From Candidatus Latescibacterota bacterium (GTDB taxonomy: Bacteria; Latescibacterota; UBA2968; UBA8231), in contig CBDFJF010000002.1 of the NCBI GenBank assembly GCA_965248265.1, positions 3,648,001 through 3,712,000 on the forward strand: a stretch of DNA of 64,000 nt. Reading direction: 5' to 3'. Made by a program: the position numbers and the translations under genes. How positions within the stretch are numbered: position 1 is the first letter of the stretch; every line of letters starts with the position of its first letter. Under the pieces are notes generated by a model. That model worked only from the letters and a program-made list of their open reading frames with translations, had not been told where the DNA came from and did no database searches. Shown piece after piece: positions 19,654-52,053 of this stretch.

Positions 19654-22600
19654 CTACTTCAACAACGTCATCCTCTTCGTGATTCCAGCACCAGCGCCTC
19701 CTTCTACCCGGTACAGATAGACACCACTGGCCGCCTTTCTGCCATCTGCATCGCGCCCGTCCCATAGGACTTCGTGGCTGCCGGAGCGCACCTCCTGATC
19801 ATCAAGCAAGAGTCGGACCATCTGGCCTGCCGTGTTGTAGATGGCGAGTCGTATCCGCGCACCGGAGGCGCTGCCCTCACCGGACTCAAACAGATTCCAG
19901 TCAGGAACAATGAACGGTATGGTGGTCTCTGGGTTGAATGGATTCGGGTAGTTGTTTCCCAGTTCCAGCATCGTGGGGAGGGTGTTTCCTCCTCCCTCTA
20001 CTTTGATCCCATGCGTCGTCCTGTTCGCCGCCCGATCCTGAACGGTGATCTCCAGGTAGTGATCGCCTGCGCCTACCGGGTCCGTCGGAGTCCATTCCAA
20101 CAGGCCGCCATCGATCGTCACGTCACCGACCCGCACGCCATCCAGGCTTACGGATATCGTTTCCAGGTCGACGCCACTGCCTCCATCCGTCAGCATCGCC
20201 TGCAACATCGAGCGTTGTGCGGTCGGTGCACTGATAATCTGGATCTCGGGACCGCGACCATCTCGCATGATGGCATAGCGGCCAAAGCGACTGAAACTCA
20301 TGACCTCGGTGGACCCGGCCACGTAGACCCACTTGCCACTCTCCTGCCGGTACAAGCCGTCTGCAGCGTCGTACTTTGCCGAGACCAACCTGAGGGCCGC
20401 CGCTTGCTTGAGATCTAGCTGTACGGGAAACAGATTCACGGCGGCACGCATGGTGAGTTCGGGGTGCAGTCCATCATTCGACCCGCCAGCCCCGCTCACC
20501 ACCATCTGCTGGTCTGAAACTCTCTCACTGTCCCGCTGCAACAGAACCTTGGTATCGCGCTCGACCGCACCAGCAGGTACCGTTACTTCGACATCACCCT
20601 GGCGGAGTGCAATCGCTTTGCCGGCAGTCGCCGTGCCAATGACGACGGAGGCAGAAGCCTGAACGTCAGTTCCTAGTTGGGTCTTGGCCTGCGCGGAAAC
20701 CGTCACTTCGCCTGCCTGGCCGGGCGGAATGACTGCACGGCCCGACCAGATCAGAATGCCCCTGCTTTCCAGTTGGGTCTCAATCTGAGTCACCGCAACG
20801 GTCGTATCGGTTGTGCCAAAGGAGAACACGACCGATGGAATACTCGCCAGTTCAGCCCTCGACATCACGAACAGGTTGAGGAACTCGACGTTGGTGGCAT
20901 TCGGTATGACGCGGACGGAGAACGAGATCTCGTCGGGCGACTCCACGACACGAACGACCATGTCCCCGAGCGCCCGGAATCCTCCACCCAGCTCAACGGA
21001 GAACGACAGCGTGTCCGAGCCTATTCGGTTGCCGAGAGCCGTGAGCGTGAGCTTGTGAGGCGGTAGCGGATCTATGAACGGTATCGTTATGGTCTGTCCT
21101 GACACCGACCAGATTGCCGTATTGGCCTCAGTGCCGTCCGGAAGGAAATCATTCAATGTGATGGTGCTGTCGGCGTCCCCCGCTGCAATGACAATCTCAG
21201 TAAACTCCTTCAGCGGCAGCGTGGCCAGTGATGGGTCTTGAGCGATGACGTTGATCGTGTCTCGGCCGGTCACGCCGATGGCAGTGTTCGTGGCGATGAA
21301 GACGACCTCCGTCTTCAAAGTATCAGATGAGAAGGCGGTTACCGTGTTGTCATCATTCACTTTGATGAAGAGGCCCTGTCCATCACCGACGATTTTTGCG
21401 CTCCATTCGATAACCGAATCCGGATGGGCTTCCGAGTCAAAGATGAAATCATTCAGCTGGAGACCACTGAATGCACCGCCGGCGATAAAGGATATGTCTG
21501 GTATGGAACGCAACGTAAGAATGTCACTCAGCCCAAAGTAGCGGACGGTCGTACTCGCTTTCTCAGTGCGCCCGAGGGAATCCGTGGCGACGAATTCCAC
21601 CGTATCAGTACCGGCGCTGTCGCTGAACGCGATCACCTTGGTGTCCCCACTCAGCAGGATGAAACCGACAGAGCCCGGCCTGGTGATATTCCACGTTATG
21701 CTGCTGCGAGAAATCAGCGGGGAAATCGTCAGATGATCATCCAGATCCAGTATTTCCGTCGGGATCAACCCCACCTCCGCCTGCAATGGCCCGATAGCGG
21801 GCTTGATCTCGAACAACCCCTCGCCCCCCTTCCCACCAGACTTAACGGTCACCAGCACCGTATCCTGCCAGGAGCGCCCACCGGGATCGATTACCTGAAA
21901 AATCACCGTTTCAGTCCGAAAAATAGCGCTTTCGGGGGCAAAAAAGGTCACCAGATTCGACAGCGGCGCGACACCAACCTGAAGATTGTCGCGATCGAAG
22001 TCACCGAGCACCTGCCAGGTCAACTCCTGCGGAGTATTGTCCGCGTCATGCGAGTAGTCGTCGAGGTCTATGTCCTTGTTCTGGTCGCCCCGATCCAGGA
22101 CGATATCCGGAATGCCGCCGACGACAGGACGGCCATCGGAGGAGTAAATCCGCAGCGTCAATTTGTCCGTCTGGTTACCCGGATCGGATACCGTCAGATC
22201 GACGGACTCGTAGCCGACGAAATCGGGAGGCGACTGTACGCTTAGCTGGCGTGCCTCATTGACGCTGATGTCCGTCGTATGCAACGGCGGGACAGCCCAT
22301 CCCAGCTCATTGTCAGCGTTGTCGGGGTCCTCGACGAAATCGTCCAGGTTCTGCAGGTCGCGCCCGCCTCCGGAAGAGAGCCGAATTGGAAAATCACTCG
22401 GAAAGACATCTGGAGGCAGGGCCTCGGCTGCCTCGAAAAAGATGATCATCGTGTCCTTGAGACTGTCGGGATCGGCTACTTCGAAGCTGACGCGACCATC
22501 GCCGACGAAAAGGGCGTCGCCCGTAACCTGCACGAGCTTGCTACCGTCTCCGCTGCGCGTCGTGTCGGCGAAAAAATGTCCTTCAGGGTCATCTACCCAT

Positions 22601-24075
22601 CTGAAAACGAGGCTGTCCAGCGGTGTGTCTACATCCCTGACGATCTCGTCGAAGCGGAAATTCCTGGTGCTGCCCCGGCTGATACGCGGATTGCGCTCGC
22701 TTTCGGGCAGAATGAACTCGGGCGCATCGGCCACACCTTCGACCTCGACGATGACTCGCAGCGTATCTCGCCCACGGGCTTCATCCTGAACCAGCACCCG
22801 CAACGAGTCCACGCCGGAAAAATCCGGCAGCGCCCACACCAGCAACTGGTGCGTAAGCTGATCGTCATCCCCTCTGATTCGCGCGTTCGTAGCGTTGGTC
22901 CCAACCGGGAGCGAGACCGCGTACACAAGGCCGTCATCCGGGTCCGCCAAATCCGGATCATCGACCATCCTGTCGAGATCGACTCCCTTGAACGCTATTC
23001 GTGCATCGAGTGAAAAACCTTCGGCGATAAAGGTGTGCTCGTCTTCCCTGAAGCGCACAGTGTCTCGTTTGACCCCGTCCGGTCCTCTTTCCAACGGACG
23101 ACCCAGAAAATCTCGGACAAATACAGGCGGATTATTGACGATTATATCAGAGAACTCGAACGAAGAAGGCACCGGTCCGGGAAAACGAACTCCGGCAATC
23201 GAATCCTGTGCTGTCCATATGACTCGTGTCCGTCCCGACCAACCCAGAAGAGGACGCACCTTGACGATGTTGCCATTGGGATCGATTTCGATCTCGAGGC
23301 TGTCAGTGGAGACCGGCGGTGTCAGTGAAAAGCTCCACTTCAGAGAGTCGATCGGTGACAGAACATTCGAGACGTAGGTGTTGAGTGAACCGATCTGTAC
23401 CGAGTCGGCCTCGCCAGGAAGCAGGATTACGTCTGGTATGTCAAAGAGTTCGAGGCCAAGGATATTGATCTCCATCCCCTGCGGAGCCGATCGAAACTGC
23501 CGCTCGCCCCCATCTGCAAGGATGACGCGTGTTTCGCTGATGGGATTTGAGTGGATACGTATTTGTGAGTTTTCCGCCGGCCGAATGGCTCGGAGTTGAA
23601 ACGTAGCGACCACGCCCTGGCCCGAACGACTTCGCTGTGCACCCACGCCTGGCCCCAACACGACCCGGTAATCGAGCAACATCAGATCGTCAGTGACCCC
23701 AAGGGCGTCATCGGACGAAACGAGCAGGTTGCGCTGCTCACCAGCTCCTTCAAACAACGGCCCGGGCACGAACGGCTGGTGCCCGGCGTTCGCCTGTCTC
23801 GATGTGTCGGCACCAGCGGTTATGTCGACGGGCCTCTGATCGGTTACAATGAAATTGTCCCTGGGAACGGTGACGAAGACGGCGATGCCGGAGGCTTCGA
23901 TGTTGCCCAGATCAGCCAGAATCTCAATGGTAACCGACTGGCCTATCTGGAGCTGGACCTGATCCCTGTTGGTGCCAGCCTCTCGCAAGCGGATGCTGTT
24001 CTGAGCGGTCGCCTGACTGGCGCCAATGACGACGAAGCACAGAACGACAAGGCATAATGTTCCGGCTACTTTCAT
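19654..24075 (-). CDS. Large secreted protein: cohesin-like N-domain, ~8 tandem cadherin/Ig-like repeats, C-terminal FlgD-Ig/T9SS-type sorting domain
   Basis: Signal peptide from ATG 24075; repeats of the IPD(I/V)...LDD(Y/F)xxDxD...L(T/K)W type; C-terminal NYPNPFNPETTIPF...WDGRD...ASGVYLY. Confidence 0.85.
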   Translation of the reverse strand: MKVAGTLCLVVLCFVVIGASQATAQNSIRLREAGTNRDQVQLQIGQSVTIEILADLGNIEASGIAVFVTVPRDNFIVTDQRPVDITAGADTSRQANAGHQPFVPGPLFEGAGEQRNLLVSSDDALGVTDDLMLLDYRVVLGPGVGAQRSRSGQGVVATFQLRAIRPAENSQIRIHSNPISETRVILADGGERQFRSAPQGMEINILGLELFDIPDVILLPGEADSVQIGSLNTYVSNVLSPIDSLKWSFSLTPPVSTDSLEIEIDPNGNIVKVRPLLGWSGRTRVIWTAQDSIAGVRFPGPVPSSFEFSDIIVNNPPVFVRDFLGRPLERGPDGVKRDTVRFREDEHTFIAEGFSLDARIAFKGVDLDRMVDDPDLADPDDGLVYAVSLPVGTNATNARIRGDDDQLTHQLLVWALPDFSGVDSLRVLVQDEARGRDTLRVIVEVEGVADAPEFILPESERNPRISRGSTRNFRFDEIVRDVDTPLDSLVFRWVDDPEGHFFADTTRSGDGSKLVQVTGDALFVGDGRVSFEVADPDSLKDTMIIFFEAAEALPPDVFPSDFPIRLSSGGGRDLQNLDDFVEDPDNADNELGWAVPPLHTTDISVNEARQLSVQSPPDFVGYESVDLTVSDPGNQTDKLTLRIYSSDGRPVVGGIPDIVLDRGDQNKDIDLDDYSHDADNTPQELTWQVLGDFDRDNLQVGVAPLSNLVTFFAPESAIFRTETVIFQVIDPGGRSWQDTVLVTVKSGGKGGEGLFEIKPAIGPLQAEVGLIPTEILDLDDHLTISPLISRSSITWNITRPGSVGFILLSGDTKVIAFSDSAGTDTVEFVATDSLGRTEKASTTVRYFGLSDILTLRSIPDISFIAGGAFSGLQLNDFIFDSEAHPDSVIEWSAKIVGDGQGLFIKVNDDNTVTAFSSDTLKTEVVFIATNTAIGVTGRDTINVIAQDPSLATLPLKEFTEIVIAAGDADSTITLNDFLPDGTEANTAIWSVSGQTITIPFIDPLPPHKLTLTALGNRIGSDTLSFSVELGGGFRALGDMVVRVVESPDEISFSVRVIPNATNVEFLNLFVMSRAELASIPSVVFSFGTTDTTVAVTQIETQLESRGILIWSGRAVIPPGQAGEVTVSAQAKTQLGTDVQASASVVIGTATAGKAIALRQGDVEVTVPAGAVERDTKVLLQRDSERVSDQQMVVSGAGGSNDGLHPELTMRAAVNLFPVQLDLKQAAALRLVSAKYDAADGLYRQESGKWVYVAGSTEVMSFSRFGRYAIMRDGRGPEIQIISAPTAQRSMLQAMLTDGGSGVDLETISVSLDGVRVGDVTIDGGLLEWTPTDPVGAGDHYLEITVQDRAANRTTHGIKVEGGGNTLPTMLELGNNYPNPFNPETTIPFIVPDWNLFESGEGSASGARIRLAIYNTAGQMVRLLLDDQEVRSGSHEVLWDGRDADGRKAASGVYLYRVEGGAGAGITKRMTLLK

Positions 24076-24133
24076 TTTTCCCCTAAAAAACTCCGCAAAA
24101 TACACATGATGGACCCCTTCACACGGTTAAAGG

Positions 24134-24358: not shown

Positions 24359-27300
24359 CTACTTGACCAGCATCATCTTGCGGATCTGCGAGAATTCACC
24401 GGCTTCCAGGTTGTAGAAGTAGACGCCGCTGGCGACGGCCCTACCCTGGGTGTCGGCACCATCCCACTTGAGGTTGTAGGTCCCCGCCTTCATCCTGTTG
24501 TCCACCAGCGTGCGAACGGTCTGTCCGAGCTGGTTGTAGATGCGCAGCTTGACGTCCCTTGCCGTGGGGATGTCGAACTTGATCTCCGTGGACGGATTGA
24601 AGGGGTTCGGGTAGTTCTGGTGCAGAGCCGCTATCGTGGGCAGTGCCGGTGCGCTGTCAACCTGCATCTGCACGCCTTGATAGTTGCTGTTCACCAGGTT
24701 ACCCGAGGCGATGTCGATGACACCGGGCTCATCGCCGAGCGTTACGAAATGCACGGTAACGAGATCAGCATCACCCCTCGCCGACCAACCCCGGCCGATA
24801 CGTGAACCAGTAACCTCGATCACGCCCGGCTGGACCCGCTGGAAGAAGAGCGAGCCGGCGGAGTTCTCGTCGAAGATGTCGCCCTGCTCCACGGCCTGAT
24901 CGGCTTCCAACGGCCTGACTAACTCAGGATCGTAGGTCATCGTCATACCGTAAGCAGTGACATCGTTCATACCCTCGACCGTCGCCGTCAGCTCGAAGAC
25001 CTTACCAGGCCACCAGGCTTCGACGTCTTCCATGCCCTCTACGCGGGCGATGGCACCGGCATTGTCTCCACCCACCACCGGCTTGAAGACCGGAGGTGCG
25101 CCGAACTTGTTGAAGTTCGTTGAGACGAACCCGATGTCGAGGGAGTTGATCACTCCGTCATTGTTGATGTCGGCGTCGCGGACGAAACCCGCATCAGCCG
25201 GTGTGAGGTTCCACACCGCGAAGATCTGGTTGGCGTCGGCGATGTCGACCTGATTGTCGCCTGTGGCGTCACCACCGAGCAGGAAGCCCAATGGGGTCGC
25301 CGGTGACAGGTCGCCGAGGGCGTCAGAGCCAAACGTCGGCTCGATAGCCTGCGTCAACCCGTTGAACAGGTTCAGCGTGTCGGTGCGACCCGTGACATAG
25401 CCAGGAGCCTTCACCGTCAACTCATAGATTCCTGGTGGAATCTGGATGAGCTGGAAGGTGCCGAAGCTGCTCGTGGGCACGTTGACGGAGTCCTCGAGGA
25501 CGCCGCCACCCAGATCCACTGGCGTACTGTCGTTGGATGCGATGTAGGCCTGGTCGGTGACGTCCTTGGTGCTACCGACCTCGCGCAAATGCACATCCAT
25601 CGTGTCAGCGTAATCCGAACGACCCTCCAACGGTACCGTCACCAGCAGGCGAGCCCGCGGTGTCAATATAACATTGGCGTCACGTGTCGGAGCTGCCAGT
25701 TGATTGATACCTCGATACAGCGCGGTGGTGCGCCCACTCTCCGTCGACCACTGCAACAGCGTGTCGAGCGGGGCGCCGCCGTCGAACTGCTTGACCAGCA
25801 GTCGTAGCGTCGCCGACACCTGAGAGCTGTCGAACGGCGTCGTCACGCGGCCGATAACCTCACCGGTCACGGAGAACTCGACGAAGTTCAGTTTCAGGAA
25901 CTGGGCATCACCCGTTGAGGTGTCGTTCTGGGCGATCGTGCTCGGCGCCTGGAAGGCCCCGACCGAGTCCACAAACGGCTGCACACCGGCTGTCACCGTG
26001 TCCTGATCGATCACCTCGAAGTACCTACGTGGCACGTCGAGATGAAGGGCGAACAGGTCAGTACTGCTACCCTGGGAGTTGATGAGGATGTCGAAGTCCA
26101 GGGTATCTCCGGAACTGGCAGTCAGCGCAGCCGGACCCATCTCAATGCTGTAGAGCGGATCCGTGCCGACCACGGACAGCGTTCCAGGTGCTTTCGACAG
26201 CACGGCTCTCTGTGCCTGCGAGCCGATACCGGTCGCGACCGAGTCGATCACTTCACTGATGTAGATATTCTCACCAAACCGTGGATTCGAACTGCCAGCG
26301 ATGAAAATATCGAACGTGGAGCCGCCCGCCAGCGCCGGGAACGAGGTCGTCTTCGTGTCCCAGTTGAAGAACTTGGGATCGCTCTCACGAATCGTCTGGA
26401 CGTGCGCGTTGGTCGTATCCGCACCAGTGATACTGTTGATGAGCAGCACGTCGGCATTACCGGTGCCGAGGCCGTTCATGTTACCTTCCAGCTGCGTCAG
26501 CGTGGAGTACTTGTTCGCTGGCGCGGCGTAGAGACGCAGGTAGGCATCGTCGGTGCCGGTGCCGTCATCGATCAGGAAAGCATCGTATTCCAGACGAATG
26601 ACATCACCGTTGATGAGGGTCTGTCCACCCGACGGCGGCGTCTTCATCGTCACCTTCGGTGCGCTGGAGGCGGGGCTCTCCTGTGTGCCGACCAGGAGCA
26701 CAGCGCCGCCCAACGATACACGGACGTTACCTGAGGAGCCGTCGTTGACGACCGCGTAGACCCACGCGGTATCAGTCGTGGCACCAACCTGGTAGGCGAA
26801 CGGGTTGGCCGAGTTGCCCGGCAAAGCAGCAACCGGAGCTGGGTTCTGCCGGAACACCTTCGGCAGGACACCCGGAGGATTGGCAAGATCCCAGACGAAC
26901 TGGTCTCCGCCCCCTTCGTCGTCCTCGGACAAACCGCTGATGATGAGCACGGCAGCACCCGAGTCAGTCCCCGTCGTAGCTACCAGGTCGGTCGAGTCCG
27001 TGCCAGAGAAGTCCTTGACGGCCGGATCGAGACCTGTGTAGTAGAGGGAGATCGTGGCGTTGTCATCGATGTCGACATCGGATCGACCACGCTGCCACTG
27101 GAACGTGTACTGCGTCTGCCCCTGCGTTGTGTTGATCTTGCGAGTTTCACCCGCGAGTGGTGCCGTGAATTCGAAGGCCGGCGAGTGGCGGATTGCGAGC
27201 GTCTGGGTAGACTTGCCCACTATCGTGCTGTCGCCGTCGGTCACCACAGCGTAGATGAAATAATTGCCCTGGGCAATCACCGAATCACCGGCGGCGCCCT

Positions 27301-30300
27301 GCGCGGTGACATCGAAGTCGAACTCGAAGTCGTCGTCCGTGCGCAGAGAGTCGGACAGCTGGACCGGTGTAGCACCAGCCAGTTCCAACGTCGCGTTCGG
27401 GAATATGCCGGCAGATATCGACGCATTGCTGTCGACCAAAGCGCTGGAGGTCGAAACAAAGAGCCGCACCTGGGCGTTGTCGTTGAAGTCGACGATCGTG
27501 AACAAGACCTTGAACGGATTCGTCTTCGACAGATCATCGAACTCACCGGTGTCGACGGTGTCGGTACCGGTCGGCGTGATCTGCTTGACCAGCGGAATAT
27601 GCCGGATGGTCAAGGGACCTTCACTGACGTCGAACACCGGGGGGTTGGCCCCGTCGTCGGCGACAGCGTAGATGAAGAAGGTTCCGTCCAGGATCTTGGT
27701 GATCGACTGGAAACCGTAGGCCGTCTGCAAGGTCAGGCCCGGGTTGTCCCAGGAGTAATCCTGGATATTGGTGTTGGATGTGCTTTCGGTCAGATCACCA
27801 CTACCGTCGGCGGCCAGTGATCCACTGGTAAAACCGGCGGTAAAGGCGTCGTTCTCATCGACGATGAGATTGCCGAAGGTGCGGATGTCGAGGACGCTCG
27901 TCAGACCGTTGTCCGGATAAGCGTACAGCTCCATCTGCAGTGAGTCGGCTCCCGTCGGACCTGTGGTAGCACCGACGTCGTCGTCATCGTCAAAGATCAC
28001 GTAACGGATCGTGAACGACTCATTGGCGAAACCGCTTGTGCTCGCACTCGGCGCCACAACTCGGACCACCGGTGCCACGTTGGCAGCGACGATGGCGATG
28101 TTGGCACCCATCTGGAAATAACTGCCAACCGGTGCCTCGCGTTCATCGCCTTGAGCCGCGTTCACGCCGACGTCGGCGACACCCGGGCGGGCGGCATCCA
28201 CACGGACCCCCTTGACGTAGGTGCCTGCGTGAGAACCTGCCGCGACGGCTCCGGGCCTTAGACTAATGCTCTGCGACACGCTCTGTTGCCCCGTGCCGCT
28301 AGGTCGCGCAGCCGAGCTCTGACTGATCACGAACAGGTTGTCAGCGGAGTCGGATGCCAGCACGTTGAGCTTGACCAGCAAGCCCACCTTGTCGGTATCG
28401 TCACCCCACTCGCCAAGGCCGACAGAGCCATCCTCGTCGTTCTGGCCCTGCCACACACCGTTGTCGTTCGTCGCCTCGACATCGTTGGCGATGCCTTTAG
28501 CGACGAAGGTGAGCGGAAAGTTTGCCGGGTCCAGGCTAGCAACGCCCATCGATGAGAACTGGATACTACGCCACTGCCCGGTCAGGAACCCACCCGGCGC
28601 ACTTGACGTCGACGGCGTTGTCGCACCGATACCAGCCCCGTTGGCGTTGTCGCCGACGGTGATGTGGACCAGGTTTCTGGACGACGTGGCCTGCGGGTTC
28701 ACAGGATTATAAACCAGGTTGTAGGCGAACCCGCCGACTGGCGTGGACTTGTCCTCATCCGTGATCACACGGCCGAGGATCTTGAAGTACGGAAGCGGAG
28801 CGATATTAGAATTGCTCAGCGCTGCCGAACCGCGTCCAGCCTGGTCCTGTCCCTGTGCAACTGCCAGGGGTCCCGTAGCGAGACCGGCGGCTATCGGCGA
28901 CCCACCCACGAAGGTCAGGTAAACGTTCGAATCCCCGGAAATCATGGCGATGTCGGGCTCGAACAGTTCCGGGTGCTTCTCGAGCACGCCGTCGTCATGG
29001 ATTGCCCCGTTGTTGGCAGCCGAGGCCACCACCTGAGGCAACTCCCACTCCTGCCCGTTGAAGCGGCTGTACAAGATTTTGACAGCCTGGCCGGTACCCC
29101 CAGTTACATCTCTCGAAACAGCGTCATTGCTGCCGGCGCCGGAGAAGACGATGTGCAGATCTCCCTGGTCGGCGCGGCGGTCGTCGACGACGGCTCCGAT
29201 GCGGTCAGAGAAAGCCCAGTGGTTCTCTATCTGGTAGCCACGCATGTTCTGGAACAGCGGGGCCGGATTACCCGTGGTGTATGTTGCAGCGGCGGCCACG
29301 TTGGTCGGGAACGCCTGGGTGGGCGTGCCGTCGAACGAGCCAGGACCGATGCCACCGTCGTAGCTGTAGAAATCGTAGTTGATGTTCTCGTCGTTGCCGT
29401 CAGTACCGGCGGCGGCGTCCGTGTGTTTCCACAGCACGTAGATCCGGTCCGGACTGCGCTGCCTGTCGACGACGACGGTGGAAAAGATATGTACTGCGCT
29501 ATTGCCCACAGCTTGCGCTGCAAAGGTGCGGTCACTCGATAGTCCGCCACCAGCAGTATTGGCTGCAATTATAGCAGCCGTGGGCCCCAAGCCGAGGTTG
29601 GCGGGCTCGTCATCGAGTGACCCGACGACATCTCCGCCCACACCTTGGTTCCAACCCGCCGCGGACACGTCATCCCACACGCTGGCTGGAACGGTCTTGT
29701 GCACGATAGACTCTACACCGGCTCCGTTTTCGTCATACCAGGAAACGTGAAGAACATCGTCATCCCCCACGGCGATGTCCGGAGCCCGACCACTGGATCC
29801 GTCTAGATCGACGCGCACGCCACCGCGACTGGCCGTATTGCCGGTCGAACCGATCTGCACGGCTTGCGCGCTGCCACCCGTGAGGCTGTCAGCGTCCATC
29901 TTGGCCACGATGACATCCTCAAAATTGGCCGTAGCGTTATTGAGCTGCCGCTCGTAGACGATGAAACAGTCGTCCGTCAAGGTGATGGCCATACGCGGGA
30001 ACGCATTGCTGCGCCCCTGGACAGTGGCCGTGTCGTTGACGACAACCGCATCGTTCGCCGGCAACCAGGAACTGCCGCCGTCATTGGAGTAGTTGAAGTA
30101 GATATTGTCGTACCCCTTACGGTCATTACCGGTACCAGTGGTAGTCTGGTTTTCGGTTATGCCTCCGGTCACGCCATCCGGAGAATGGTCCATCGCGTAC
30201 ACCACACGCGGATTTCCTCTGCCGTCAACGACGATATCGACGGTCGAGAAACCAGAGTCCATCGTCATGCTGGAGGTGATCAGATCAAAGCGCAGAGTTC

Positions 30301-30766
30301 CAGATACGGAGACCGTATCCAGAAAACTCTCGCCGCCATTCACGCTCTTGGCGTACACGACGCCATAAACCGGTGTAGCGAAAGCGCCATTGTCGGTGTT
30401 GATGGTTCCGCGCTGCTGGACCCAGGCCCGGTGAATGAAACCGAACTGGTCAATGCTAATGGCCTGGGACATGTAGGCAGCGTTCCCGGCCTGCGCGGCG
30501 GGAAAGAACGGAACACTCTTTTCGAGCTTCTGGAAATTCCCGATGACGGGAAAATCCGCATTGGCCGCCTCGTTCAAGTCGACTCGCACCGTCACGTCCT
30601 TGTCCGTTACGAACGTGCTGGTGGTCGAACTGTCAGCGGCATTGAATCCAACAGGCGTCTGGTTCTCAAACACCGGCTGGGCATCGGCATCACCGCCGAA
30701 CCCGAAGCCAGCTATCAGAACCGCGACAGCCGTTCGGAAAATTTCACGCCTAAGACTCATAATCAA
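24359..30766 (-). CDS. Giant secreted surface protein: Asp-box propeller region, 4 Ig-like repeats, cohesin-like, dockerin-like, cohesin-like, FlgD-Ig/T9SS-type sorting domain
   Basis: Signal peptide (ADA-Q); SVNGGESF and SNDGGSSW Asp-boxes; GDATGDNQVDIAD...ADINNDGVINSLD dockerin loops; QNYPNPFNPSTEIKF...WDG...ASGVYFY; AAGGAG RBS. Confidence 0.9.
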   Translation of the reverse strand: MIMSLRREIFRTAVAVLIAGFGFGGDADAQPVFENQTPVGFNAADSSTTSTFVTDKDVTVRVDLNEAANADFPVIGNFQKLEKSVPFFPAAQAGNAAYMSQAISIDQFGFIHRAWVQQRGTINTDNGAFATPVYGVVYAKSVNGGESFLDTVSVSGTLRFDLITSSMTMDSGFSTVDIVVDGRGNPRVVYAMDHSPDGVTGGITENQTTTGTGNDRKGYDNIYFNYSNDGGSSWLPANDAVVVNDTATVQGRSNAFPRMAITLTDDCFIVYERQLNNATANFEDVIVAKMDADSLTGGSAQAVQIGSTGNTASRGGVRVDLDGSSGRAPDIAVGDDDVLHVSWYDENGAGVESIVHKTVPASVWDDVSAAGWNQGVGGDVVGSLDDEPANLGLGPTAAIIAANTAGGGLSSDRTFAAQAVGNSAVHIFSTVVVDRQRSPDRIYVLWKHTDAAAGTDGNDENINYDFYSYDGGIGPGSFDGTPTQAFPTNVAAAATYTTGNPAPLFQNMRGYQIENHWAFSDRIGAVVDDRRADQGDLHIVFSGAGSNDAVSRDVTGGTGQAVKILYSRFNGQEWELPQVVASAANNGAIHDDGVLEKHPELFEPDIAMISGDSNVYLTFVGGSPIAAGLATGPLAVAQGQDQAGRGSAALSNSNIAPLPYFKILGRVITDEDKSTPVGGFAYNLVYNPVNPQATSSRNLVHITVGDNANGAGIGATTPSTSSAPGGFLTGQWRSIQFSSMGVASLDPANFPLTFVAKGIANDVEATNDNGVWQGQNDEDGSVGLGEWGDDTDKVGLLVKLNVLASDSADNLFVISQSSAARPSGTGQQSVSQSISLRPGAVAAGSHAGTYVKGVRVDAARPGVADVGVNAAQGDEREAPVGSYFQMGANIAIVAANVAPVVRVVAPSASTSGFANESFTIRYVIFDDDDDVGATTGPTGADSLQMELYAYPDNGLTSVLDIRTFGNLIVDENDAFTAGFTSGSLAADGSGDLTESTSNTNIQDYSWDNPGLTLQTAYGFQSITKILDGTFFIYAVADDGANPPVFDVSEGPLTIRHIPLVKQITPTGTDTVDTGEFDDLSKTNPFKVLFTIVDFNDNAQVRLFVSTSSALVDSNASISAGIFPNATLELAGATPVQLSDSLRTDDDFEFDFDVTAQGAAGDSVIAQGNYFIYAVVTDGDSTIVGKSTQTLAIRHSPAFEFTAPLAGETRKINTTQGQTQYTFQWQRGRSDVDIDDNATISLYYTGLDPAVKDFSGTDSTDLVATTGTDSGAAVLIISGLSEDDEGGGDQFVWDLANPPGVLPKVFRQNPAPVAALPGNSANPFAYQVGATTDTAWVYAVVNDGSSGNVRVSLGGAVLLVGTQESPASSAPKVTMKTPPSGGQTLINGDVIRLEYDAFLIDDGTGTDDAYLRLYAAPANKYSTLTQLEGNMNGLGTGNADVLLINSITGADTTNAHVQTIRESDPKFFNWDTKTTSFPALAGGSTFDIFIAGSSNPRFGENIYISEVIDSVATGIGSQAQRAVLSKAPGTLSVVGTDPLYSIEMGPAALTASSGDTLDFDILINSQGSSTDLFALHLDVPRRYFEVIDQDTVTAGVQPFVDSVGAFQAPSTIAQNDTSTGDAQFLKLNFVEFSVTGEVIGRVTTPFDSSQVSATLRLLVKQFDGGAPLDTLLQWSTESGRTTALYRGINQLAAPTRDANVILTPRARLLVTVPLEGRSDYADTMDVHLREVGSTKDVTDQAYIASNDSTPVDLGGGVLEDSVNVPTSSFGTFQLIQIPPGIYELTVKAPGYVTGRTDTLNLFNGLTQAIEPTFGSDALGDLSPATPLGFLLGGDATGDNQVDIADANQIFAVWNLTPADAGFVRDADINNDGVINSLDIGFVSTNFNKFGAPPVFKPVVGGDNAGAIARVEGMEDVEAWWPGKVFELTATVEGMNDVTAYGMTMTYDPELVRPLEADQAVEQGDIFDENSAGSLFFQRVQPGVIEVTGSRIGRGWSARGDADLVTVHFVTLGDEPGVIDIASGNLVNSNYQGVQMQVDSAPALPTIAALHQNYPNPFNPSTEIKFDIPTARDVKLRIYNQLGQTVRTLVDNRMKAGTYNLKWDGADTQGRAVASGVYFYNLEAGEFSQIRKMMLVK

Positions 30767-31053
30767 ACACTCCTTCCATGGACACAGCTATTTTGCTGAA
30801 AGCGAACTAGCGCGATTGGCCGCAACCCATTTCCCTATGGACCGCCTACCAACCTCAAACAGACCTGAGGTCCGCCCCCACGGGCCTTCAGTCTGACGGT
30901 TGAGCTTAAGTGTTCAGTGAATCTGATGGTTGTTCTCTCCTTAACGTTCCTCGTGCGTTTCATGCGTTGCTAGTGCTGGTACATCTGTTCATGCTTCCAC
31001 TTCTTTGGATCTTACTGCCTACAGCTTTGCTCGATCGAAACTGTTGGGGAACA

Positions 31054-31218
31054 GTACGCGGAACTACGGACACCCCTACATAGAAAGTCCCCGGGTTCCT
31101 TACCCCGTTTATCGGCATCTGCAGTACGAACTTCAGGATATTTTTCATCAGGGTAGTAGTCGACGAACCCGGAGGCACTCCCTACGTTGCGCGTTGCCCG
31201 GTGAATTCGGCCGCGTAC
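31054..31218 (-). ncRNA. Candidate rod-shaped structured RNA (sRNA or 5' leader), family unassigned
   Basis: Five nested helices found by hand, with G-U pairs only in the minus-strand transcript; TATAAT at 31227-31222 just upstream. Confidence 0.5.
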
Positions 31219-31548
31219 ATTATTATATAGACGCTTACCAGCATCCCCCCTTCCCCTAAAAGGACCAGGAGTGAGTGGCACATCCACAGGCGCCAGAAGC
31301 ATAGTGCTCAAAAGTTCACCAATACTTGTCTTGCTCAGGCCAGATCCTTGCCTGTTCGAGTTTGCCCCCATATATTCGAAAGCCAGGGAGCCGGCCCATC
31401 GGTGAGGACGGGCGGCTCCGCTTCGCTTTCAGACAAAGCTGTGCCCCTTATGGTTAGGATCGGCCTCCGTCAGCACTTGCAGATGTGGGGGAGCTCGCGC
31501 TGAAGCGAGGGCACGGTATGGGACATAAACTTTGGTCAGTCCCAGTTA

Positions 31549-31564
31549 AGCAAGTGCCATGCCA
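31549..31564 (-). promoter_or_regulatory. Putative sigma54 (-24/-12) promoter pointing toward the giant surface-protein gene
   Basis: Minus strand TGGCATGGCACTTGCT, matching TGGCA-N6-TTGCW. Confidence 0.65.
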
Positions 31565-31602
31565 TCACCTAATCAGGTTCGTCTGACGATTGTATCATGC
31601 AC

Positions 31603-31630
31603 TTGCACAAACAGTAACGTCCTCTATTTA
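31603..31630 (+). promoter_or_regulatory. Putative sigma70 promoter for rpsT
   Basis: TTGCAC-N16-TATTTA. Confidence 0.35.
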
Positions 31631-31715
31631 AGCGGACTAGTCAGGGTCTGCTGAGGAAGTTTTTACCTAGACGAACGGTTCATCGCGACGTGGCTTGAAT
31701 GTAGGAGAAGACCTT

Positions 31716-31970
31716 TTGCCGAAGCCCAGATCATCAAAGAAGCGATTGAAACAATCCCTTGTACGGCGCGACCGCAATCGTGCCGTTATGTCGACGATGC
31801 GGACTGCTGTCAAAGCCGTGCGGCAGGCAGCTGACAAGGAAAGTGCGACTGCCGCCCTGGCCACGGCGATCGGAACAATCGATCACACGGCTCAAAAGGG
31901 TGTGATCCACCCCAACAAAGCCGCTCGCTACAAATCCCGTCTTACCAGGCAGGTACAGGCTCTTAACTGA
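31716..31970 (+). CDS. rpsT: 30S ribosomal protein S20
   Basis: TTG start after AGGAG; SSKKRLKQS...RNRAVMSTMRTAVK...KGVIHPNKAARYKSRL. Confidence 0.97.
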   Translation: MPKPRSSKKRLKQSLVRRDRNRAVMSTMRTAVKAVRQAADKESATAALATAIGTIDHTAQKGVIHPNKAARYKSRLTRQVQALN

Positions 31971-32003
31971 ATCTGGCCTCACACTGAAGCAACTACGATC
32001 GAG

Positions 32004-51976: not shown

Positions 51977-52053
<77 letters not shown>

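Follow-up and report, generated by a model that had tools for sequence, protein, structure and literature searches.

The window analysed here is a stretch of 64,000 nt from Candidatus Latescibacterota bacterium (GenBank assembly GCA_965248265.1, contig CBDFJF010000002.1, positions 3,648,001 to 3,712,000 of the forward strand), and the element in question is a rod-shaped hairpin encoded on its minus strand at 31054-31218, in the 928-bp spacer (30767-31694) between rpsT, the gene for ribosomal protein S20, and a divergently oriented 6.4-kb gene for a giant secreted protein. We hold, with a probability of roughly 55%, that the giant gene, a predicted type IX secretion system (T9SS) cargo gene, has a long structured 5' leader and that this rod is its central arm, not a free-standing small RNA (sRNA); such a leader probably controls translation. 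The rod tip is best regarded as a conserved module, and the long stem as an extension specific to this lineage. The leader would measure at least about 460 nt if transcription starts at the TATAAT box next to the rod, and some 700-800 nt if it starts upstream of a conserved element, b, that lies further 5'. Among relatives the conserved parts keep a fixed position and orientation upstream of orthologous genes, and their helices carry compensatory changes.

The structured leader RNA to which the element belongs is undescribed and restricted in range; among the papers listed by a full-text literature search, none dealt with such a leader. The rod by itself would be a curiosity of one genome. The parts of the architecture and the two genes that flank it are listed here by their position in the window.

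31695-31970, plus strand: rpsT (ribosomal protein S20; Ribosomal_S20p, E 1.1e-25), divergent from the giant gene
31486-31491, minus strand: CCCCCA, candidate pseudoknot partner and perfect complement of the loop of hairpin Hg
31422-31446, minus strand: element b, comprising the 5' strands of helices H1 (GGGCACAGC, 31446-31438) and H2 (CUGAAAGCGAA, 31432-31422)
31387-31419, minus strand: hairpin Hb, GGAGCCG...CGGCUCC, directly 3' of b
31054-31218, minus strand: the rod hairpin
31095-31140, minus strand: motif c in the rod tip, UAUCCUG-AAGUUC-[variable hairpin]-UGCCGAUAA-CGGGGUA-AGGAAC, about 45 nt, with 23 homologues
31041-31054, minus strand: small hairpin CUGUU-CCCC-AACAG, adjoining the rod on its 3' side and identical in the nearest relative found
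30860-30895, minus strand: hairpin Hg, with the invariant loop UGGGGG (30880-30875)
30816-30852, minus strand: hairpin Ha, with the loop AGGGAA and an inner and an outer helix
30780-30806, minus strand: element a, comprising the 3' strands of H2 (UUCGCUUUCAG, 30806-30796) and H1 (GCUGUGUCC, 30788-30780)
30758-30777, minus strand: Shine-Dalgarno sequence GGAAGGAG (30777-30770) and giant-gene ATG (30760-30758), both invariant columns in the 24-sequence alignment A3
24359-30760, minus strand: giant gene, an open reading frame (ORF) for a 2133-aa secreted protein

Conserved pairing in the spacer

Elements b and a lie 426-671 nt apart and are predicted to form a long-range helix of about 20 bp that ends 2 nt from the Shine-Dalgarno sequence, with a duplex energy of -29.7 to -48.3 kcal/mol in 24/24 sequences. 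In relatives, element a adjoins the 5' end of the giant gene, and the order b, motif c, a, Shine-Dalgarno sequence was recovered by pattern in 24 of 28 sequences. On A3 the two helices are almost completely paired (H1, 98.1%; H2, 95.5%), and four of their pairs have changed on both sides; the covarying variants include CAGC/GCUG, CGAC/GUCG and CAAC/GUUG as well as GCGAA/UUCGC against GCGGAA/UUCCGC. Transition differences between b and a amount to 22 G-U cells and no A-C cell, with every G-U on the sense strand of the giant gene.

Three hairpins are likewise supported by covariation. Hb is 95.3% paired, with four of its eight pairs changed on both sides, and Hg is 93.3% paired, with such changes in three of five. 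The inner and outer helices of Ha are paired in 90.8 and 74.8% of cells, respectively, and seven of its ten pairs have changed on both sides. RNAalifold, run on the 3' domain (A4), also predicted Hg, the inner helix of Ha, and a local helix in which CUUUCA (30802-30797), within element a, pairs with UGGAAG (30778-30773) and thereby covers part of the Shine-Dalgarno sequence; this helix is an alternative to the long-range duplex. A perfect complement of the Hg loop occurs 41-51 nt 5' of H1 in 16 of the 24 sequences, and four species of genus g13 have the loop UAGGGG together with UCCCU(A/G/C) at the place of the partner, that is, a G-to-A change in the loop and a C-to-U change opposite it. A U-rich run comes after Hg in the window and in several relatives, and the 3' part of Hg is the sole terminator-like call in the spacer; Hg could be an attenuator whose loop the pseudoknot captures.

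Taken over all 52 named pairs of A3 (H1, H2, Hb, the tip helix P(c), Hg, and Ha inner and outer), 89.2% of cells are paired; shuffles give 84.5%, and sliding the partners lowers the share to 32.6-44.6%. There are 84 cells with changes on both sides, a value that none of 500 shuffles reached (their mean is 33.6 +/- 6.0), and they involve 22 of the 52 pairs. G-U cells outnumber A-C cells by 109 to 20, and the pairing therefore belongs to the sense strand of the giant gene. Folding the single sequence 31582->30755 (828 nt) by energy only independently produced b/a, Hb, the intact rod, Hg and Ha together, at -308.4 kcal/mol (z -3.57; 0/20 shuffles as stable).

The distribution of this architecture is narrow. 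Of the 132 genomes of the class, 24 had a match to a model of the 3' domain (R3), one each, and every one of these belongs to family f1, a group of uncultured marine bacteria; the other three families of the class yielded none (0/31, 0/3 and 0/22). Two loci of genus g18, L150 (G083) and L152 (G086), keep b, Hb and motif c, and element a and the Shine-Dalgarno sequence with the giant-gene start are absent within 700 nt; the locus seems rearranged there. On the other side of the architecture, further conserved blocks stand 5' of b (31486-31560, minus strand), running CUUGCU...GACAAGUC...GUCCC, then a hairpin, then CCCCCA. Conserved RNA or DNA therefore extends to about 31555, and the contigs of two RNA libraries (X17 and X18) stop matching at 31565.

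The rod and its tip

The first-pass annotation, made from the sequence of the window alone, had described the rod as a 165-nt hairpin with strand-specific G-U pairs, and that description is correct: the rod is more than chance would give. The minimum free energy (MFE) fold of the minus strand, 31218->31054, has 59 pairs and an energy of -68.3 kcal/mol, and all five of the nested helices that had been named are found in it. Seven of its pairs are G-U, where at least five had been counted, and an alignment of the 5' arm with the reverse complement of the 3' arm shows 37 Watson-Crick pairs, 5 G-U, 0 A-C, 5 other mismatches and 15 gap positions. Dinucleotide shuffles of the minus strand average -52.8 kcal/mol (sd 4.1; z -3.78), and 0/200 are as stable as the rod, as opposed to 44/200 for the plus strand (-50.7 kcal/mol, z -0.75), which bears out the claim of strand specificity. 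The lack of a large central bubble of the 6S type also holds, since no internal loop exceeds the 8 x 8 nt of one close to the tip, beyond which there is only a 26-nt terminal hairpin.

The rod is unusual within the window, not uniquely stable. When the window was tiled on both strands (165-nt pieces in 55-nt steps, 2322 tiles), only seven tiles had a GC-corrected MFE as low as that of the rod, and none of the seven was a single hairpin with at least 50 nested pairs; a raw MFE of -68.3 kcal/mol or lower was found in 92 tiles, mostly G+C-rich coding DNA. A 201-nt query containing the rod had one match in the host's own 7.32-Mb assembly, so that the rod is single-copy, and a miniature inverted-repeat transposable element (MITE) or other repeated hairpin element was rejected on this ground and on the single genomic match of the motif model R2. 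Three small ORFs that overlap the rod (119 aa at 31012-31371, 72 aa at 30960-31178, and 84 aa at 31005-31259 on the plus strand) were likewise rejected as genes, because the ORFs overlapping the rod had zero Pfam matches and the region is rich in indels between relatives.

What relatives share with the rod is its tip. A family-wide DNA search delimited three conserved islands in the spacer, one of which corresponds to rod positions 73-141, and 23 distinct sequences have in common ...AAAAUAAUCCUGAAGUUC-[8-14 variable nt]-UGCCGAUAAGUAGGAGUAAGGAAC..., with 17 invariant columns. The model R2 built on this motif found one match in the host genome and one each in 26 of 76 genomes of the family, representing 11 of 18 genera; at every locus whose context was read, motif c lies in the spacer between rpsT and the giant gene and in the orientation of the giant gene. 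The motif contains a helix, P(c), kept in relatives as UAAUCCUG/UAGGAGUA and formed in the window by UAUCCUG (31140-31134) and CGGGGUA (31107-31101). Because subgroups of the MAFFT tip alignment A2 are one column out of register, P(c) was assessed by a register-optimised count and species permutations: standard pairs make up 145/184 (79%), and 1 of 5000 permutations does as well. The conserved tip helix differs from the tip of the MFE rod, in which CGGGGUA pairs with UACCCUG instead; the UACCC/GGGUA pairing named in the first-pass annotation is thus present in the MFE fold and competes with the helix conserved in relatives. Forcing P(c) in the rod costs 5.1 kcal/mol and leaves the lower stem unchanged. 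In many genera a second (G)CCGAUA(A/U)A...UAG string, like that in motif c, stands about 100-150 nt 5' of it (examples are loci L141, L142, L143, L146 and L147; A3 columns ~250-345), at a place where the window reads GCUGGUAAGCG...UAUAUAAUAAUG.

Searches made with the whole rod brought up no counterpart in relatives. The 201-nt query had a DNA match in 0/40 of them, and a single-sequence structure model of the rod (R1) found only short chance hairpins, the best among 29 rpsT loci scoring 15 bits (E 0.44) and the best over loci L074-L076 reaching E 0.61. An RpsT search of genome contigs gave no near relative (best 52% identical), and a metagenome scan with RpsT supplied the nearest one found, L074, with an RpsT 79% identical to that of the window. 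Its spacer can be aligned on both sides of the 5' arm of the rod but not across the arm. L074 retains the rod tip, a TATA(A/G)T box and the 3' end (GCGUAC with the CUGUUCCCCAACAG hairpin behind it). Its 5' arm shows no relation to that of the rod, and the homologous 167 nt do not fold (-40.0 kcal/mol, z +0.67). The UUCCCC motif at the place of the small hairpin 31041-31054 recurs, by eye, in several genera. Nested pairs around the tip motif number 0-21 in the MFE folds of 21 relatives, compared with 47 here. On these comparisons the rod as a whole is not conserved and only its tip is, the lower stem (rod positions 1-62 and 119-165) being lineage-specific. A by-eye impression that unrelated sequences flanking the motif form a basal helix in most relatives was also rejected, own flanks giving -14.5 and cross-species flanks -15.3 kcal/mol.

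These observations lend themselves to a second account, which we regard as possible but doubtful, in which only the tip matters and the lower stem is functionless, a by-product of an old inverted duplication or of linker drift. It is favoured by the occurrence of the stem in one genome, by a 5' arm that cannot be aligned to L074, by the lack of covariation in a basal helix, and by the region between Hb and motif c, whose length and sequence differ greatly among family members and of which genome G087 keeps almost nothing. Weakly opposed to it are the 5 G-U against 0 A-C transition mismatches of the arms, the z-score of -3.78, and a relative in run X5, about 90% identical, whose contig spans 31036-31983 and whose only listed indels in the rod (31075-31077 and 31079) sit in or beside an irregular internal loop.

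Promoter-like sites and RNA contigs

Two promoter-like sites bear on where such an RNA would begin.

31222-31227, minus strand: TATAAT box, separated from the rod by 3 nt on its 5' side; the corresponding alignment columns of L074, the nearest relative found, read TATAGT
31348-31376, plus strand: sigma-70-like promoter TTGCCT, 17 nt, TATATT, pointing at rpsT from about 320 nt upstream

The TATAAT box lies where the first-pass annotation had placed it, at 31227-31222. Its standing as a promoter is less clear: the related box TATAGT is matched in L074 only, no -35 hexamer passes the consensus scan, and the family alignment does not show the box as a conserved block. It may be an internal or alternative promoter, and, since conserved elements that pair with sequence downstream of the rod start more than 200 nt upstream, it perhaps lies inside a longer transcript; by its sequence and place it may also be a remnant of the upstream repeat of the motif-c string. 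The plus-strand site was the only promoter-like site in a scan of 30500-32000, and its hexamers (UAUAA and GGCAAG on the minus strand) look conserved by eye throughout the family alignment. The 5' untranslated region (UTR) of rpsT is therefore probably unusually long, about 310 nt, with a start near 31385, and the 5' domain of the leader would be antisense to it. A by-eye promoter on the minus strand, TTACTG-17-TACAAT at 31617-31589, fails the scan criteria and is not relied upon.

The four runs compared consist of contigs of relatives, and the RNA evidence among them, which gives neither strand nor read-level ends, is weak and mixed. Contigs of RNA libraries from two studies cover 31403/31416-31565 and 30500-30898/30969; the X17 contig joins 30883-30907 to 31012-31094, the 3' foot of the rod, and adapter-tagged contigs of X18 end near 31400 and 30975, the former fitting an rpsT start near 31385. 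All of the sequence so covered (30500-30969, 31012-31094 and 31403-31565) represents relatives' versions of the locus. The interval 31095-31402 is uncovered, at low depth, and was not counted as evidence.

The transcript contigs fit, among other things, an arrangement with two RNAs, which we think unlikely: the 5' domain (about 31565-31385, with CCCCCA, b and Hb) would be a separate RNA in giant-gene sense, antisense to the rpsT 5' UTR, that pairs in trans with the Hg loop and element a, and the giant-gene mRNA would start at TATAAT with the rod as its 5'-terminal structure. Contact at two separate sites, one in a loop and one in a linear stretch, is a typical feature of pairing in trans. The box is kept as TATAAT and TATAGT in the window and L074 while its flanks diverge, the contigs of both studies hold 31403/31416-31565, and the G+C-rich hairpin Hb marks the 3' edge of that block. 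Set against these points, Hb has no canonical U tract and was not called terminator-like, TATAAT lacks a passing -35 hexamer and family-wide conservation, the contigs are strandless and that of X18 runs on into rpsT, and the 828-nt fold forms b/a in cis.

The first-pass annotation had offered the choice of an unclassified sRNA or a leader domain, and of these the leader domain is the better option. A stand-alone sRNA of about 165-200 nt transcribed from the TATAAT promoter, possibly resembling 6S RNA, is in our estimation very unlikely, stable and strand-specific as the hairpin is and lying as it does 3 nt behind a -10-like box. A discrete species of 170-200 nt would end after the rod, and no terminator-like site lies next to 31054, the scan of 30500-32000 having returned only 30880-30866; moreover, the rod is not conserved in L074, R1 found nothing in the 29 rpsT loci, and the tip motif is embedded in a larger conserved architecture. 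The element is unclassified, as had been stated. Rfam 15 at the gathering score gave tRNA only across the whole window (one tRNA gene at 51977-52050, plus strand, 63.7 bits), so that no family matches the rod; at E<=10, region 30700-31750 gave only a chance-level match to fiv_FSE (14.5 bits against a gathering score of 53; E 3.3), and 18 homologous loci had 0 matches to Rfam families. The 6S model (RF00013) found nothing in the whole 7.32-Mb genome at E<=10, with 81 candidates scored; the absence of a canonical 6S RNA elsewhere in the genome would leave that role vacant for the rod, whereas the rod itself also lacks a 6S match at this threshold and has no central bubble.

Finally, an invertible, phase-variable promoter with b and a as its inverted repeats, alike through recombination and not through RNA pairing, is extremely improbable: repeats of about 20 bp, 426-671 bp apart, do flank promoter-like boxes upstream of a giant surface or secreted protein gene, a layout typical of Bacteroides-type invertons, but all 22 transition differences are G-U on one strand and none A-C, the spacers between the repeat halves are unrelated in sequence and length, the pairing extends variably at one end with compensatory changes, the segment holds covarying hairpins in a fixed orientation in 24/24 sequences, and the four runs contained no strand-switching joints, which contigs could miss.

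Several results weigh against the view of the rod as an arm of one long leader. No convincing minus-strand promoter was found upstream of b, the sole scan site being on the plus strand. Among the relatives' RNA contigs, no single one spans b to a and none crosses the whole rod, and the X18 ends could be the 5' ends of the rpsT and giant-gene mRNAs in that relative, which would leave the rod untranscribed there. The structure scored on A3 was derived from the same, related sequences, so that its controls make the support look stronger than it is. In A4 the CUUUCA/UGGAAG helix does not vary in 20-22 of the 22 sequences and is thus beyond covariation testing, and P(c), which needed register optimisation to reach 79%, is only 68.8% paired on A3; RNAalifold predicted no structure on the A2 alignment. 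As to the stem, it is seen in one genome only, 4367 of 5000 permutations gave a basal helix as stable as that of a motif's own flanks, and the 5:0 G-U bias is weak evidence, arising about 1 time in 32 by chance.

Proposed mechanism and its meaning

The C-terminal part of the giant protein matches Por_Secre_tail, FlgD_ig and Dockerin_1 above the curated Pfam cut-offs (CHU_C and CarboxypepD_reg fall below them), and its sequence therefore marks it as T9SS cargo with a C-terminal sorting domain. Directly downstream of the giant gene lies a gene for a 1483-aa protein (19654-24105, minus strand), whose C-terminal ~120 residues are weakly PorU-like (PorU being the T9SS sortase; far below the cut-off) and which also contains a tandem-95 repeat. 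In the tiling of the window, the tile 30616-30780 on the minus strand, which runs from the Shine-Dalgarno sequence over the ATG and ~145 nt into the giant gene, folded as a single long hairpin of -66.0 kcal/mol with 57 nested pairs, and its GC-corrected residual of -17.7 is near that of the rod (about -18.3); as folded, the translation start of the giant gene may itself lie inside a long stem.

Under the leader reading, control would be exerted at the ribosome-binding site. The CUUUCA of element a would pair with the Shine-Dalgarno sequence (UGGAAG) and mask the site, and pairing of b with a, ending 2 nt from the Shine-Dalgarno sequence, would free it again, acting as an anti-anti-Shine-Dalgarno clamp. 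The CCCCCA/UGGGGG pseudoknot and the tip motif may be where a protein, a ligand or an RNA acts as a signal, or they may fix the fold. The stem of about 45 bp beneath the motif would be a lineage-specific expansion helix, able to fold as RNA (5 G-U, 0 A-C) and dispensable for the shared mechanism. More tentatively, and at well under even odds, the whole can be pictured as an as yet undescribed class of very large regulatory RNA, about 0.7-0.8 kb, with a 5'-3' clamp next to the ribosome-binding site and a pseudoknot from a loop to the 5' end, in which the conserved 'UGAAGUUC...UGCCGAUAAGUAGGAGUAAGG' module senses a protein or a small molecule as its signal and switches translation of the giant T9SS surface protein, the 5' domain is antisense to the rpsT 5' UTR, and the rod is an expansion of the sensing arm.

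Known systems offer partial parallels. The Escherichia coli rpoS leader is opened by DsrA, RprA and ArcZ in an anti-antisense activation of translation: in its long 5' leader, a segment upstream of the Shine-Dalgarno sequence pairs with the ribosome-binding site, and a distant complementary RNA removes that segment. The counterpart here is the competition between CUUUCA/UGGAAG and the b/a duplex. There is no relation in sequence or family, however; the activating segment here is part of the same strand, 426-671 nt upstream, and could work in cis, the leader has a candidate pseudoknot and additional covarying hairpins, and the regulatory outcome is inferred.

GOLLD and ROOL belong to the large structured bacterial RNAs whose function is unknown or came to light recently. 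With these and with OLE, the leader shares a length of several hundred nucleotides, many covarying hairpins, a narrow range, and no assigned biochemical function. Unlike them, it directly fronts one gene, at whose Shine-Dalgarno sequence it ends, and it therefore looks cis-regulatory and not free-standing; no Rfam model of the three matches it. In 6S RNA a large central bubble separates a long closing stem from a long terminal one. The rod recalls it in length (165 nt) and shape but differs in having no covariance-model match and no such bubble, in not being conserved as a unit, and in being embedded in a larger RNA. RNase P RNA and rRNA carry variable peripheral helices, or expansion segments, and the rod would resemble these as a conserved motif set on a helix whose length differs widely between lineages; the basal helix is not supported in relatives, and the analogy would rest on this one genome. 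For size, OLE RNA is given as a large structured bacterial RNA of about 600 nt (PMC9723947).

Large structured RNAs with clear covariation are seldom newly found in bacteria, and every such find has led to new biology. The present case indicates that a striking hairpin in one genome can flag a larger conserved RNA though the hairpin is not the conserved unit. The leader precedes a 6.4-kb gene for a T9SS protein, whereas the 5' UTRs of the compared group typically measure tens of nucleotides, the medians given being 24 nt for Flavobacterium psychrophilum and 32 nt for Bacteroides thetaiotaomicron, which may not be close kin of the host (PMC9723704). The b/a clamp and the competing local helix beside the Shine-Dalgarno sequence constitute a directly testable switch, and, if the larger picture is true, the overlap of the 5' domain with the rpsT 5' UTR could couple ribosomal-protein and surface-protein expression.

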